NCBI RefSeq assembly: GCF_017348835.2
Contig: NZ_CP071375.1
Length of the DNA: 64,000 nt
Direction: 5' to 3' (one strand)
From: Escherichia coli
GTDB taxonomy: Bacteria > Pseudomonadota > Gammaproteobacteria > Enterobacterales > Enterobacteriaceae
How positions within the stretch are numbered: the first letter of the stretch is position 1; each line of letters begins with the position of its first letter. The position numbers were made by a program. Positions 35,801 to 41,800 of this stretch are shown here, piece by piece.

Positions 35801-38800
35801 CAACAACACTCGCCCGTCGATATCCCATGAATGGATGGTCCGCGGGCGCGGATACTCCGTTGCCAGTTCGCCGTAGACATCATCTTCAAAAATCACAATA
35901 TCATGACGCTGAGCGAGAGAGAGAGAACGGCCCGTTTGCGTGCGTCCGGCATAATAAATCCCAGCGGATTATTACAGTTTGGCACCAGAATGATGCCTTT
36001 AATCGGCCACTGTTCCAGCGCCAGTTCCAGCGCTTCAACGCTGATGCCAGTTTCTGGATCGGTTGGGATTTCAATCACTTTCACGCCCATACCGCGCAGC
36101 ATTTGCATCGAACCGTAATAACAGGGGGATTCGACCGCGACAATATCGCCCGGTTTACACACCGCCATTAACGCCAGCGACATCGAGTTATGGCAGCCGC
36201 TGGTGATAATGATGTCATCGGCGGTGACCACCGAGCCGCTGTCGAGCATCAGGCGGGCAATCTGCTCTCGCAATACCCGCTGACCGGCTAACAAGTCATA
36301 ACCGAGCACGGTTTGTAGATTATGCTGCACCACCCGGCTTAGCTCACGCCAGAGTGGTTTCAGGCTGGGCGTTTCGACATCCGGCGTGCTTTTGCTTAAC
36401 GGAACAATGGAACTGTCGCTATGCGCCTCCAGCATATCCAGCACCTGATCCCACTGGGTAATTTCCACCGGGCGCTGCACCGGACGCGTCATCGGCGGTA
36501 CAGGCGGCTGGGCTTTACGTTGTGCGACAAAATAACCCGAACGCGGCTGCGGAGTGATGAGCTTCATCGTCTCCAGCGTCTGGTACGCCTGCTGCACGGT
36601 GCTGATGCTGACGCCGTGCTCCTGACTTAAGCTGCGCACCGACAGCAATTTCTCCCCGTGACGATACAGCCCTTGCTCAATCCGCTCGGCAAGCAGAGTT
36701 GCCAGATGTTGATAACGCGTCATGCTGTATTCCTTATTTGGACCATACAGATAGAGAAACCGGTACAGATGAGGCTAAAAAACCGGATGCAGATGCTGTT
36801 TTAACCTGTCTGTATGTTAAATAAAACTAATATTTGCATCTGTATTGTGAACTGCCAGAAGGCGGATGATGAAGCCTCTGAAAGATGAGGAGGCAGCAGA
36901 TGGAATTTCACGAAAACAAAGCCAAAACGCCGTTTATCAGACTTGTGCAACTCTGGCAGGCGGTGAGGCGTTGGCGGCGGCAAATGCAGACCCGACGGGT
37001 GTTACAGCAGATGAGTGATGAGCGGCTGAGGGATATCGGGTTACGCAGGGAGGATGTGGAGTGAACTATGGGCGGCGTGTTGGCAAATGCTGCCTGTCTG
37101 CATTCAAAATTGCTACAAAATCCAACCATAAAAGTCGTTTACAACATATTTTTCTGATTTACATACAGATAATGACCTGAGCTGTCTCTCTGGGGGTCAT
37201 CATCTATGCGTCCGGGGGATCTGTCACAAAAAGGAATAGAACAAAATCATCAGCGGTGAATAAAGCGATTCGTTTTAGATCACATTAATGAAATTTTTGT
37301 ATCAAAAATTAGTTATCGCGCTCACAGTTCATAATGAAACAATTCTCTGCAAATAGATAACCGAAGCTTCGTTGCTAGTATCAATTCGCTAATTATACAC
37401 CTGCCAGAGGATACAATGAAAAATAGAAATCGTATGATCGTGAACTGTGTTACTGCTTCCCTGATGTATTATTGGAGCTTACCTGCACTGGCTGAGCAGT
37501 CGTCAAGTGAGATAAAGATTGTTCGCGATGAATACGGCATGCCGCATATTTATGCCAATGATACATGGCACCTATTTTATGGCTATGGCTATGTAGTAGC
37601 ACAAGATCGCCTTTTTCAGATGGAAATGGCACGTCGCAGTACTCAAGGGACTGTCGCGGAAGTGCTTGGCAAAGATTTTGTGAAATTTGATAAAGATATC
37701 CGTCGTAACTACTGGCCGGATGCTATCCGGGCGCAAATTGATGCCCTTTCCCCAGAGGATATGTCCATTCTGCAAGGCTACGCTGATGGAATGAATGCCT
37801 GGATTGATAAGGTAAATACCAATCCAGAGACGCTCTTACCAAAACAGTTTAATACATTTGGCTTTACTCCTAAGCGCTGGGAACCGTTTGATGTCGCGAT
37901 GATATTTGTGGGCACCATGGCAAACCGCTTCTCTGATAGCACTAGCGAAATTGATAATCTGGCACTGCTAACGGCTTTAAAAGATAAATATGGTGTATCA
38001 CAAGGCATGGCGGTATTTAATCAGTTGAAATGGCTGGTAAACCCATCAGCGCCAACCACTATTGCCGTACAAGAGAGTAGCTACCCACTTAAATTTAATC
38101 AGCAAAACTCGCAAACAGCAGCTCTGTTGCCACGCTACGATTTACCTGCACCAATGCTTGACCGACCAGCAAAAGGGGCGGATGGCGCACTGCTGGCGTT
38201 AACAGCAGGGAAGAACCGGGAAACTATTGCTGCACAATTTGCACAGGGTGGTGCCAATGGTCTGGCGGGGTATCCAACGACCAGCAATATGTGGGTGATC
38301 GGCAAAAGCAAAGCCCAGGATGCGAAAGCAATCATGGTAAATGGTCCGCAGTTTGGCTGGTATGCGCCTGCGTATACTTATGGTATTGGTCTGCACGGTG
38401 CTGGTTATGATGTCACTGGCAATACACCATTTGCCTATCCTGGGCTGGTTTTTGGTCATAATGGTGTGATTTCCTGGGGATCAACGGCAGGTTTCGGCGA
38501 TGATGTCGATATTTTTGCTGAACGGCTGTCGGCAGAGAAACCAGGCTACTACTTGCATAATGGTAAGTGGGTGAAAATGTTAAGCCGTGAGGAAACCATT
38601 ACGGTGAAAAATGGTCAGGCAGAGACCTTTACTGTCTGGCGTACGGTGCATGGCAACATTCTCCAAACTGACCAGACGACACAAACGGCTTACGCTAAAT
38701 CCCGCGCATGGGATGGTAAAGAGGTGGCGTCTTTGCTGGCCTGGACTCATCAGATGAAGGCCAAAAATTGGCAGGAGTGGACACAGCAGGCAGCGAAACA

Positions 38801-41800
38801 AGCACTGACCATCAACTGGTACTATGCTGATGTAAACGGCAATATTGGTTATGTTCATACTGGTGCTTATCCAGATCGTCAATCAGGCCATGATCCGCGA
38901 TTACCCGTTCCTGGTACGGGAAAATGGGACTGGAAAGGGCTATTGCCTTTTGAAATGAACCCTAAGGTGTATAACCCCCTGTCGGGATATATTGCTAACT
39001 GGAACAATTCTCCCCAAAAAGATTATCCCGCTTCGGATCTGTTTGCCTTTTTGTGGGGGGGGGGCAGATCGCGTTACGGAGATCGACCGACTGCTTGAGC
39101 AAAAGCCACGCTTAACTGCTGATCAGGCATGGGATGTTATTCGCCAAACCAGTCGTAAGGATCTTAACCTGAGGCTTTTTTTACCTACTCTGCAAGCAGC
39201 GACATCTGGTTTGACACAGAGCGATCCGCGCCGTCAGTTGGTGGATACATTAACACGTTGGGATGGCATCAATTTGCTTAATGATGATGGTAAAACATGG
39301 CAGCAGCCAGGCTCTGCCATCCTGAACGTTTGGCTGACCAGTATGTTGAAGCGTACCGTAGTGGCTGCCGTACCTATGCCATTTGATAAGTGGTACAGCG
39401 CCAGTGGCTACGAAACAACCCAGGACGGCCCAACTGGTTCGCTGAATATAAGTGTTGGAGCAAAAATTTTGTATGAGGCGGTGCAGGGAGACAAATCACC
39501 AATCCCACAGGCGGTTGATCTGTTTGCTGGGAAACCACAGCAGGAGGTTGTGTTGGCTGCGCTGGAAGATACCTGGGAGACTCTTTCCAAACGCTATGGC
39601 AATAATGTGAGTAACTGGAAAACACCTGCAATGGCCTTAACGTTCTGGGCAAATAATTTCTTTGGTGTACCGCAGGCCGCAGCGGAAGAAACGCGTCATC
39701 AGGCGGAGTATCAAAACCGTGGAACAGAAAACGATATGATTGTTTTCTCACCAACGACAAGCGATCGTCCGGTGCTTGCCTGGGATGTGGTCGCACCCGG
39801 TCAGAGTGGGTTTATTGCTCCTGATGGAACAGTTGATAAGCACTATGAAGATCAGCTGAAAATGTACGAAAATTTTGGTCGTAAGTCGCTCTGGTTAACG
39901 AAGCAGGATGTGGAGGCGCATAAGGAGTCGCAGGAAGTGTTGCACGTTCAGAGATAATTAAGCCCGAAAGCCCTCATATTCTGGAGGAATATGAGGGTGA
40001 TAAAGTCTCAAGTATTGTGATGTTGGAGGGCTGGTTACTTTTTGAGTCCCGCAAACGCCGCCCGAATCTCATCCTCCGGCAACTGAATCCCGATAAACAC
40101 CATCGTGCTATGCGGTTTTTCATCGCCCCACGGGCGGTCCCAGTCGGCGCTGTAGAGGCGCTGGACGCCCTGGAACAGCAGGCTGTTAGGTTCGCCGTCA
40201 ATCCACAGCATCCCTTTGTAACGCAGCAGTTTATCCGCCGATTCCAGCAGCAGGTTTTCCATCACCCGGGAAACTTCGCTGATATCTACCGGGTAATCCA
40301 GTTCCACCACAATCGACGAAATATCGTTTTGTTTGTCCGCGATAAAATGGAAACGCGGTTTGGTGCTGACGACGTTTTCTTCCAGCATAAAACCGTTGGT
40401 GTTGAACAGCAGACCCAGGTCGATGTCGCCGTGGGTGACGGTGTAGACCGGTGCACGGGCGTTGATGCGTGCCAGACGTTCACGCAGTTTTTCTGCTTCG
40501 CCTGCGACGTCGGTTTTAGTCAGCAGAATACGGTCGGCGTAGCCCACCTGGGACTGGGCGATGGTGAACTGGTTCATCTGCTCATCGGCATGTACCGCAT
40601 CCACCAGCGCAATCACGCCGTCCAGCAGGTAGCGCTGGCATAAAATCTCATGGGAGAAAAAGGTTTGAATAATCGGGCCAGGATCGGCCATGCCGGTGCA
40701 TTCAATGACCAGACGATCGAACTGAATATTGCCCTTGTCGAGATTATCCAGCAGGTCGAGTAGCGCGTCCTCCAGCTCGTTGGAGCGCGAACAGCAGATG
40801 CAGCCGTTGGTCAGCGTTTTGATCTGCGTGGCGCGGTCGCCAATCAGTTGATCATCAACGGAGACTTCGCCGAATTCGTTTTCAATCACGGCAATCTTGT
40901 AGCCGTGTTGTTCATTAAGAATATGGCGCAGCAGGGTGGTTTTGCCCGCGCCTAAAAAACCGGTGAGTAGGGTAACTGCAATCGGGTTCATGCTCTCTCC
41001 ATTAACAACAGCGCATACCGCCTTTACCATCGCCGCCGTAGCGCGCGTTCTGGCGTTCGCGGAAGAATTCTTCATAGCTCATGTACGGCTTGTCGGGATG
41101 GTTGGTCTTCATATGCTCGACGTAGTTGTCGTAGTCTGGAATGCCAATCAACATCTTCGCCGCCTGGCCGAGATATTTTTTTGCCTGTCCTAAGTTACCA
41201 AACATAGTTCACTCTGATAAGAACAAAGCCCCGCCGAAGCGGGGCTAAACACGGTTAGTGGTGCGAAGAAATCTTCACGCCGCCTTCCGGGATTGGAACG
41301 TACGGAGTTTCTTTGTCAGTACGTTTGTCGCTGTTACGCACCGCAAGCCAGGTTTTGAAACCGTAGAAGATGATGCTGTACACCACAATCAGGAACAGAA
41401 TACTCAGGCCTGCGTTGGTGTAGTTGTTCACAACGATGTGGTTCATGTTGGCAATCTGCTGCGCCGTCAGGTCAGTACCGTTAGCAATCTTCTCTTTGTA
41501 CTGGCTTGCCATGTAGAAGAAGCCTTCCATCTGCGGGTTGGTGCTGAACAGTTTCAGGCCCAGCGCCCAGGTGGTGCAGATAAGCAGCCATACAGCCGGA
41601 ACAACAGTTACCCAGATGTATTGGGTGCGCTTCATCTTAATCAGCACAACGGTGCCCAGTACCAGCGCTACGGCTGCCAGCATCTGGTTGGAAATACCGA
41701 ACAGCGGCCACAGGCTCTTAACGCCGCCCAGCGGATCGACCACGCCCTGATACAGCAGGTAGCCCCACAGACCCACACAGCCCGCAGTACCGATGATACC

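Follow-up and report, generated by a model that had tools for sequence, protein, structure and literature searches.

The window analysed here, a 64 kb stretch of Escherichia coli DNA, carries a variable segment between the conserved genes yjiS and yjiA, referred to below as the pac cassette, in which the only gene is pac. The features of the locus are listed with positions counted from the first base of the window.

36900-37064, plus strand: yjiS, a DUF1127 gene of 54 aa; left conserved anchor
37065-40034: variable segment (pac cassette), 2,970 bp; its K-12 counterpart (yjiT to mrr) measures 15,993 bp
37065-37258: AT-rich non-coding DNA forming the left end of the cassette
37259-37415, plus strand: pac regulatory region, as judged from conservation across genera
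37416-39957, plus strand: pac, penicillin G acylase precursor
39055-39064, plus strand: G10 homopolymer (G9 in the in-frame allele), spanning Trp547-Gly548-Gly549 (beta258-260)
39971-39997: perfect inverted repeat of 11 bp with a 5-nt loop, between the convergent stop codons of pac and yjiA
40035-40991, minus strand: yjiA, a GTPase of 318 aa; right conserved anchor, followed by yjiX and btsT

Apart from pac, the gap between yjiS and yjiA holds upstream non-coding DNA and a hairpin and nothing else. In BLAST comparisons homology to K-12 MG1655 ran up to the final base of the yjiS stop codon (37064) and broke off there; it was back from the yjiA stop codon, of which 40035 is the first base. Both the YjiS and the YjiA protein are 100% identical to the K-12 versions. 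The K-12 interval is annotated with yjiT, yjiV, mcrC, mcrB, symE/symR, hsdS, hsdM, hsdR and mrr, the immigration control region (ICR). A sequence-only reading of this DNA had placed pac in the slot of K-12 mcrBC-hsdRMS-mrr, with only pac and non-coding DNA separating yjiS from yjiA, and had given the K-12 order as yjiT-yjiV-mcrCB-symE-hsdSMR-mrr; breakpoints and K-12 annotation bear this out, coordinates and gene identities included. The two forms thus share slot and anchor genes, with homology breaking at the anchor stop codons, but the K-12 ICR measures 16 kb against 2.97 kb in the window, where a catabolic hydrolase gene is found and no restriction, modification or toxin genes. E. coli PE164, which is 99.994% identical to the window across all 64 kb, has the same genes named in its RefSeq annotation. 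As is characteristic of ICR alleles the segment is bounded by yjiS and yjiA; the defence genes also typical of them are missing, pac alone being annotated in the PE164 interval.

A tblastn search of the 64 kb window with K-12 HsdR/M/S, McrB/C, Mrr, YjiT and SymE returned no homologues. The absence of restriction systems that the earlier reading stated for this hot spot consequently holds for the slot and for the window; a strain-wide absence would go beyond that scope. The same reading had pointed to an HNH protein at 1086-1736 as a candidate restriction gene; an open reading frame is indeed present there, and the PE164 annotation calls it an HNH endonuclease, but the restriction role finds little backing in its matches (Pfam HNH, i-E 0.006; PADLOC type IV models, E about 1e-4). 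Closer to the cassette, the hpa cluster lies 3.7 kb from pac, an intact nuclease gene of the rpn family is found 2 kb to the left, and yjiR, a neighbour of pac, is in the window strain also inactivated by repeat slippage.

The upstream non-coding DNA (37065-37415, 351 bp) has a GC content of 38.5%. Its AT-rich left part, 37065-37258, matches neither K-12 nor the DNA that precedes pac in Kluyvera, and the 150 bp upstream of pac are conserved between E. coli and other genera. The stretch 37259-37415, which was tested for conservation, contains GCGATTCGTTTT, resembling a PaaX box, a CTCACAGTTC block, the promoter-like pair TTGCTA...TATACA and GAGG as a Shine-Dalgarno sequence; these site assignments are putative and follow the PaaX/CRP literature. 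A promoter scan found no canonical sigma-70 promoter on the plus strand upstream of pac; it misses the conserved TTGCTA...TATACA because the tool demands T at the last position. Downstream of pac a terminator scan found no canonical terminator. The 77-nt pac-yjiA spacer folds with a minimum free energy of -27.3 kcal/mol on the plus strand and -23.3 kcal/mol on the minus strand (z -3.9 and -4.9), and the hairpin at 39971-39997 is likely a two-way transcript end that lacks a canonical T run. An Rfam scan of 35000-45000 gave nothing above gathering score in or beside the cassette. PaaX binding at the pac promoter has been reported in a review, which sees in penicillin G acylase a PaaX-controlled scavenger of phenylacetylated compounds and not a resistance determinant (PMC9493321). 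Intact pac encodes a periplasmic Ntn-hydrolase, which cleaves phenylacetylated compounds to release phenylacetate, and control by PaaX would tie it to aromatic-acid catabolism. The "antibiotic-acylase" cargo of the sequence-only reading is a frameshifted gene in the window, and the term overstates the role of a scavenger.

An intact pac has 846 codons. The window copy, 2,542 nt long, is split by one extra G at 39055-39064 into 37416-39098 (560 aa) and 38992-39957, the downstream coding part running in the +1 frame to 39957. This G10 tract is the sole G/C run of at least seven bases in the 64 kb window and sits three codons before the catalytic beta-Arg263 (residue 552); the frame shifts after Gly549, and the predicted 560-aa product lacks beta-Arg263 and the next 294 residues. 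Beta-Ser1, beta-Asn241 and beta-Arg263 have established roles in penicillin G acylase, and the window sequence has no uninterrupted 846-codon frame in which all three are encoded. Once repaired, it matches the 1GK9/1PNK chains, alpha at 27-235 and beta (1GK9_B) at 290-846, with E = 0, and is thus homologous over the full precursor length to the E. coli enzyme of solved structure. PE164, the only near-identical genome, has G9. Judged by its reading frame, pac is off in the window sequence, through one extra G just before the catalytic beta-Arg263.

E. coli W (ATCC 9637 / ATCC 11105), from which penicillin G acylase is obtained industrially, has a gene order identical to that of the window, rpn-yjiR-yjiS-pac-yjiA-yjiX-btsT-hpa. 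Its pac differs from the window copy at 15 of 2,541 nt and in six residues (A109D, N222S, Q522L, Q581K, E610D and R744W), and reads TGG GGT GGT GCA, an interrupted form with 846 intact codons, where the window has an uninterrupted G10 and a frameshift. That pac replaces the ICR cluster is already known from the E. coli W genome paper (PMC3032704) and from recent reviews, and alternative segments at the yjiS-yjiA position have been described (PMC3874153, PMC12707154).

Among 5,426 complete E. coli genomes the cassette was present in 1,074, at an identity of at least 99% in 1,037, and yjiS, pac and yjiA were contiguous in 1,067, or about a fifth of the collection; all but seven of the pac-positive genomes had pac in this slot. 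The K-12-type cluster was found in 538, roughly half as many of the complete genomes as have the pac form, and other forms fill the slot in the remainder. Unrelated alternative blocks thus occupy one position in different strains, as is diagnostic of an ICR hot spot. With considerable confidence we regard the yjiS-yjiA interval as such a hot spot, of which the window carries the pac form, an exchanged block with pac off.

The length of the G run varies widely. Of about 1,071 pac-positive genomes, 312 had G9, 210 G10, 54 G8 and 25 G11, and some 433 had the interrupted GGT-GGT form seen in strain W; about 27%, the window sequence among them, were out of frame at the run. These tallies were made with queries of 78-81 nt, as queries of 99-100 nt failed to tell run lengths apart, one gap still giving at least 99% identity. 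G8 to G11 occurred on near-identical haplotypes, and G8, G9 and G10 on haplotypes separated by 0-3 SNPs in 3.1 kb. The uninterrupted G9 run, now in about 60% of pac-positive genomes, arose in E. coli through two synonymous GGT-to-GGG changes. Like the contingency genes of Neisseria, Haemophilus and Campylobacter, pac has a coding G run of at least nine bases, long enough to slip; near-identical strains differ in its length by one to three bases, and this sets the reading frame, the off alleles being otherwise intact. Unlike in contingency genes, where the run lies near the 5' end, that of pac lies two-thirds into the gene, and the state of the tract stayed constant when strains were re-sequenced and within clonal series. 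The literature searches turned up no report that connects pac with a homopolymer or with phase variation.

The variation may well reflect simple ongoing decay of a dispensable gene, in which slippage inactivates pac and nothing restores it, and we give this explanation somewhat better than even chances. The 27% of carriers out of frame, the insertion sequences or partial deletions in other pac carriers, the loss of adjoining yjiR to repeat slippage in the window strain and the absence of any reversion from a 14-sequence haplotype sample all agree with it. It accounts less easily for the off alleles sampled, eight of eight of which recover the 846-codon frame at G9 and contain no secondary stops or indels, or for G9 still being the commonest length, being seen in about half of the G-run alleles where neutral equilibrium predicts one-third. 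That the run is instead a heritable and reversible on/off switch for the periplasmic acylase, maintained by selection and making pac a contingency gene rather than a decaying one, we consider unlikely.

As to the origin of the cassette, the composition of pac relative to its flanks is informative, with a GC3 of 0.456 against 0.61-0.70 for yjiR, yjiS, yjiA and btsT. In nine diverse pac-positive genomes nucleotide diversity was 2.56% in yjiS and 2.29% in the 3' end of yjiA, but only 0.30% in the non-coding DNA ahead of pac and 0.53% in pac itself. By these measures E. coli pac looks imported, and low GC3 together with a diversity four to eight times lower than in the flanks suggests recent block exchange through flank recombination. 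The cassette would have entered E. coli from a lower-GC enterobacterium that already had pac at the same locus, and would then have been swapped whole when DNA passed between strains and recombined homologously within the conserved flanks. Flank recombination is read from the pattern, which counts against the best explanation, and the mechanism of ICR segment replacement is still unsettled in the literature (PMC3874153). No donor whose pac has a GC3 near 0.46 turned up; the most similar proteins, from Kluyvera, are 86-87% identical, and their genes have a GC3 of 0.70-0.72.

These relatives raise the question of whether pac is instead an ancestral occupant of the interval, inherited vertically from before the Escherichia/Kluyvera split and displaced by restriction cassettes in most E. 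coli lineages. The interval is also the site of pac in Kluyvera (K. cryocrescens and relatives), Lelliottia, Leclercia and Silvania, with protein identities of 80-87%: in six Kluyvera species the gene stands between yjiR-yjiS and yjiA-yjiX-btsT, and in Silvania, Lelliottia and Leclercia it adjoins yjiA. The regulatory region is conserved, and at the DNA level E. coli and Kluyvera share 78% in pac, compared with 75% in yjiR and 84-87% in yjiA-btsT, an intermediate value that also fits old vertical descent. The loci of the other genera differ from the window in adding an aldehyde dehydrogenase and a 196-aa secreted protein, and those of Kluyvera further add a LysE-type exporter and an AraC-type regulator; tblastn detected remnants of none of these four in the E. 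coli interval. In all four genera pac has a host-like GC3 (0.70-0.72), which in Kluyvera matches that of its own flanks, and interrupted Gly-Gly codons, and therefore no G run. Vertical descent is hard to reconcile with the GC3 contrast within E. coli, with the low diversity of pac beside yjiS and yjiA, or with the finding of pac in no other Escherichia species representative, and we think it doubtful.

A further question is whether the frameshift itself is real, or whether the G-run differences are homopolymer errors of sequencing or assembly and pac is really intact here and in most other carriers. Long-read assemblies do make such errors, just four differences, of which two are indels, separate the window from PE164 over 64 kb, and the window's G10 together with a lineage-specific T at 39646 was found in no other genome of the complete-genome collection. 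Yet strain HS shows G8 in its Sanger-era genome and again in an independent recent assembly, clonal series that come from one study each are concordant (EC21Z x4, Ec-042 x6 and WCHEC strains, all G10), and the commonest off-state is +1, whereas nanopore errors are typically deletions. A T9 run in the same genomes had no length variant in 60 sampled of 4,873, with 94% matching exactly. Because this control run shows no such variation, the G-run length polymorphism is taken as real and beyond sequencing error; the concordance of HS and the T9 control exclude error as its main cause, and a largely artefactual origin is very improbable.

Delivery of pac by a site-targeting mobile element (island, transposon or plasmid integration) would suit a recognised hot spot with an intact rpn-family nuclease gene nearby and with insertion sequences inside pac at times (IS1203 in O111:H8, an IS3-family element in TUM1881), but is scarcely credible given that annotation and a repeat scan revealed no integrase or transposase, no tRNA target and no attachment-site or other flanking direct or inverted repeats, that both cassette borders coincide exactly with flanking stop codons and that the insertion sequences break up pac instead of flanking it. 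Border repeats were confined to chance-level matches, the best being 26 nt at 77% between the 3' ends of yjiS and pac, with an exact 11-nt core that is about the chance expectation for 3.5 kb. No true plasmid copies were seen, the only "plasmid" matches being Mb-scale mislabelled chromosomes.

With about 27% of pac-positive genomes out of frame, gene-presence calls overstate acylase capacity in E. coli. What looks like a recently spread pac block on older and more diverse flanks bears on how ICR segments are swapped, and its G run offers a convenient natural marker for slippage in this species. If the run were a true switch, a metabolic scavenger enzyme in the ICR slot of E. coli would be a contingency gene.

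The interval between yjiS and yjiA, a hot spot that holds the immigration control region (ICR) of restriction genes in K-12, contains pac (penicillin G acylase) as its sole gene in the window. E. coli PE164 (NZ_CP114128.1) is 99.994% identical to the full 64 kb window, with 2 substitutions and 2 single-base indels, and its RefSeq annotation is therefore transferable. The genes below were located by an ORF listing and comparison with annotated genomes.

35309-36723, minus strand: yjiR
36900-37064, plus strand: yjiS
37416-39957, plus strand: pac
39971-39997: perfect 11-bp inverted repeat (hairpin), 3' of the pac stop codon
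40035-40991, minus strand: yjiA, followed by yjiX and btsT

By BLAST, homology to K-12 is lost at 37064, the final base of the yjiS stop codon, and picks up again at 40035, the first base of the opposite-strand yjiA stop codon; the variable segment, here called the cassette, thus measures 2,970 bp in the window as against 15,993 bp in K-12. From yjiS to yjiA the MG1655 record has yjiT, yjiV, mcrC, mcrB, symE/symR, hsdS, hsdM, hsdR and mrr, in agreement with the K-12 order given in an earlier, sequence-only reading, and the breakpoints at both stop codons bear out its placing of pac in the slot of this cluster. Its claim that the slot lacks restriction genes also holds, as tblastn with K-12 HsdR/M/S, McrB/C, Mrr, YjiT and SymE gave zero matches in the whole window. 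An Rfam scan of the interval at a permissive threshold returned no credible match. The cassette is carried by 1,074 of 5,426 complete E. coli genomes, yjiS, pac and yjiA being contiguous in 1,067 of the 5,426, while only 538 were scored as K-12-type (at least 80% of the K-12 cluster present). By these counts, then, pac and the restriction genes act in this interval as alternatives that exclude one another. The E. coli W record has the same gene order as the window, rpn-yjiR-yjiS-pac-yjiA-yjiX-btsT-hpa. The observation and main interpretation of the sequence-only reading are correct, but the replacement of the ICR by pac is already published for E. coli W (PMC3032704) and the hot spot well studied: alternative segments between yjiS and yjiA have been described in a review that calls the replacement mechanism unknown (PMC3874153), and non-defence enzymes are reported in this island across the Enterobacteriaceae (PMC12707154).

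With one genome scanned per prokaryotic species, pac relatives were found at 15 loci. pac is flanked by yjiR-yjiS and yjiA-yjiX-btsT in six species of Kluyvera and by yjiN and yjiA in Silvania, Lelliottia and Leclercia; this slot is therefore where pac belongs across genera. Genes for an aldehyde dehydrogenase and a 196-aa secreted protein stand alongside pac in other genera, and the Kluyvera loci also have a LysE-type exporter and an AraC-type regulator; no remnants of such Kluyvera-type neighbours were found in E. coli. E. coli pac (48.1% GC) has a GC3 of 0.456 against 0.61-0.70 in its flanks, whereas Kluyvera pac is host-like, its GC3 of 0.70-0.72 being similar to that of Kluyvera flanks. 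Across a set of nine diverse, pac-positive genomes of E. coli, nucleotide diversity (pi) was 2.56% in yjiS and 2.29% in the 3' end of yjiA, compared with 0.30% in the upstream non-coding DNA of the cassette and 0.53% in pac, and the comparison with HS, another pac-positive strain, gave the same step at the cassette edge. We infer a more recent origin for the E. coli cassette than for its flanks. The donor would probably have been a lower-GC relative with pac already at the same locus, and the cassette probably spread within E. coli through recombination between flanking genes. An old, vertically inherited pac keeps some weight because the 78% DNA identity of E. coli and Kluyvera pac falls between the values of flanking genes, but the deviating GC3 and the low diversity of the cassette argue against it and make it unlikely. 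The sole pac copies labelled as plasmid-borne were mislabelled chromosomes.

Neither annotation nor a repeat scan revealed an integrase, tRNA, IS end or flanking repeat in the cassette and its borders. The upstream non-coding stretch (37065-37415, 351 bp) has 38.5% GC. Its first 194 bp (37065-37258) are without a homologue both in K-12 and in the DNA preceding Kluyvera pac, and from 37259 to the ATG it can be aligned with the sequences ahead of pac in Kluyvera, Lelliottia, Silvania and one Enterobacter MAG. Invariant in this cross-genus alignment are a GATTCG box, CTCACAGTTC, GCTAGTAT...CATACACCTGC and the ribosome-binding site, and the conserved blocks are presumably repressor and activator sites (PaaX/CRP). 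PaaX is reported to bind the pac promoter (PMC9493321). The 77-nt pac-yjiA spacer folds well beyond shuffled sequences (z -3.9 and -4.9 on the two strands), and the hairpin at 39971-39997, which is followed by no T run, would fit a shared transcript end for the convergent pac and yjiA.

Other features of the window were observed alongside. At 34110-35066, 2 kb to the left of the hot spot, there is an intact gene for a recombination-promoting nuclease of the Rpn family (rpnD-like, 318 aa); this stretch is the one most diverged from K-12 and HS (7-12% per 500 bp), and rpnD is a pseudogene in K-12. The hpa (4-hydroxyphenylacetate catabolic) cluster, at about 43712-55031 between btsT and tsr, begins 3.7 kb from pac; K-12 is empty there, and the layout is common to HS and W. 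A single-base deletion relative to PE164 is found at 54450 in the hpaR-hpaG intergenic region, outside homopolymers (TTG-AGGG vs TTGCAGGG). Between btsT and hpaC a 73-nt element (43455-43527), 86% identical to the K-12 hsdM-hsdR intergenic region in reversed orientation and coinciding with a sub-threshold Rfam V_AS5 match (43425-43543, E 0.002), is probably a dispersed intergenic repeat. The HNH candidate restriction gene of the earlier reading exists as an ORF (1086-1736, 216 aa), with matches to type IV restriction models that are weak. Beside it, an ORF on the minus strand (764-1003) corresponds to the N-terminal part of a phosphorothioate-DNA-binding restriction endonuclease (E 1.7e-16), and the PE164 annotation has remnants of IS3 and IS30 shortly before position 1; the 764-1736 region has the appearance of a degenerate defence locus within the second hot spot reported in PMC12707154. 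fimA (about 8243-8781) is frameshifted according to the PE164 annotation, and the window is identical there.

The window pac comprises 2,542 nt as against 2,541 nt when intact. A G homopolymer at 39055-39064, ten long in the window (G10) and nine in PE164 (G9), is the sole difference between the two in the pac region; G9 is in frame, and G8, G10 and G11 are off. The run codes for Trp547-Gly548-Gly549, three codons ahead of Arg552, which is beta-Arg263 since the beta subunit starts at residue 290 (290-846, mapped to solved structures). beta-Arg263 is a catalytically important residue of penicillin G acylases. As written, the window product has 560 aa, the last 11 out of frame. At 39646 a C-to-T change (Arg744Trp, beta-Arg455Trp) is shared only with PE164 among sampled alleles; this lineage-specific T and G10 occur together in no genome of the collection, and the window G10 stands as a provisional call. 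In the neighbouring yjiR, a pseudogene in the window and PE164, (GA)4 has become (GA)5, which shifts the frame by +2 compared with K-12 and HS (indel placed at 35915-35916), and with G10 in pac two adjacent genes are therefore inactivated by simple-repeat slippage.

Among near-identical sequences of one haplotype (0-3 SNPs in 3.1 kb), PE164 and F2_81 have G9, the window has G10 like EC2001 and A29, and G3/10 has G8, while TUM1881 combines G10 with an IS3-family insertion in pac. Exact-match queries of complete E. coli genomes, with 3 partial hits subtracted per count, gave 312 G9, 210 G10, 54 G8 and 25 G11, and about 433 genomes, including W and C21, had the interrupted form TGG GGT GGT GCA; this single site therefore puts about 289 of 1,071 carriers (27%) out of frame. 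In every outgroup genus the sequence is interrupted (TGG GGC GGN and similar), and the G9 run is therefore derived in E. coli. The pac homologue of Leclercia adecarboxylata NCTC13032 (6001-8475 of locus L024) matches from residue 22 only, straight translation from there meets stop codons by the Gly-Gly site, and it may be a pseudogene or indel-bearing.

Simple ongoing loss of pac through the G run is rather probable and ranks above selection for an on/off switch: no reversion to G9 was seen among sampled sequences, the tract keeps its length within clones, and IS elements also interrupt pac in some lineages. Against such loss, the full 846-codon frame was restored in 8 of 8 sampled off alleles once the run was set to G9, and G9 still makes up about half of G-run alleles, which is compatible with a recent or reversible change. 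A selected switch seems quite improbable. Sequencing artefact was rejected as the source of the variation, given G8 in both the Sanger genome and a recent re-assembly of HS, concordant run lengths within each clonal series, and a control T9 run in ytiD (21885-21893) that matched exactly in 94% of 4,873 genomes and changed length in 0 of 60 evenly sampled ones. A literature search found no paper on the pac G run. The frameshift-prone G run in pac stands as a modest new observation.
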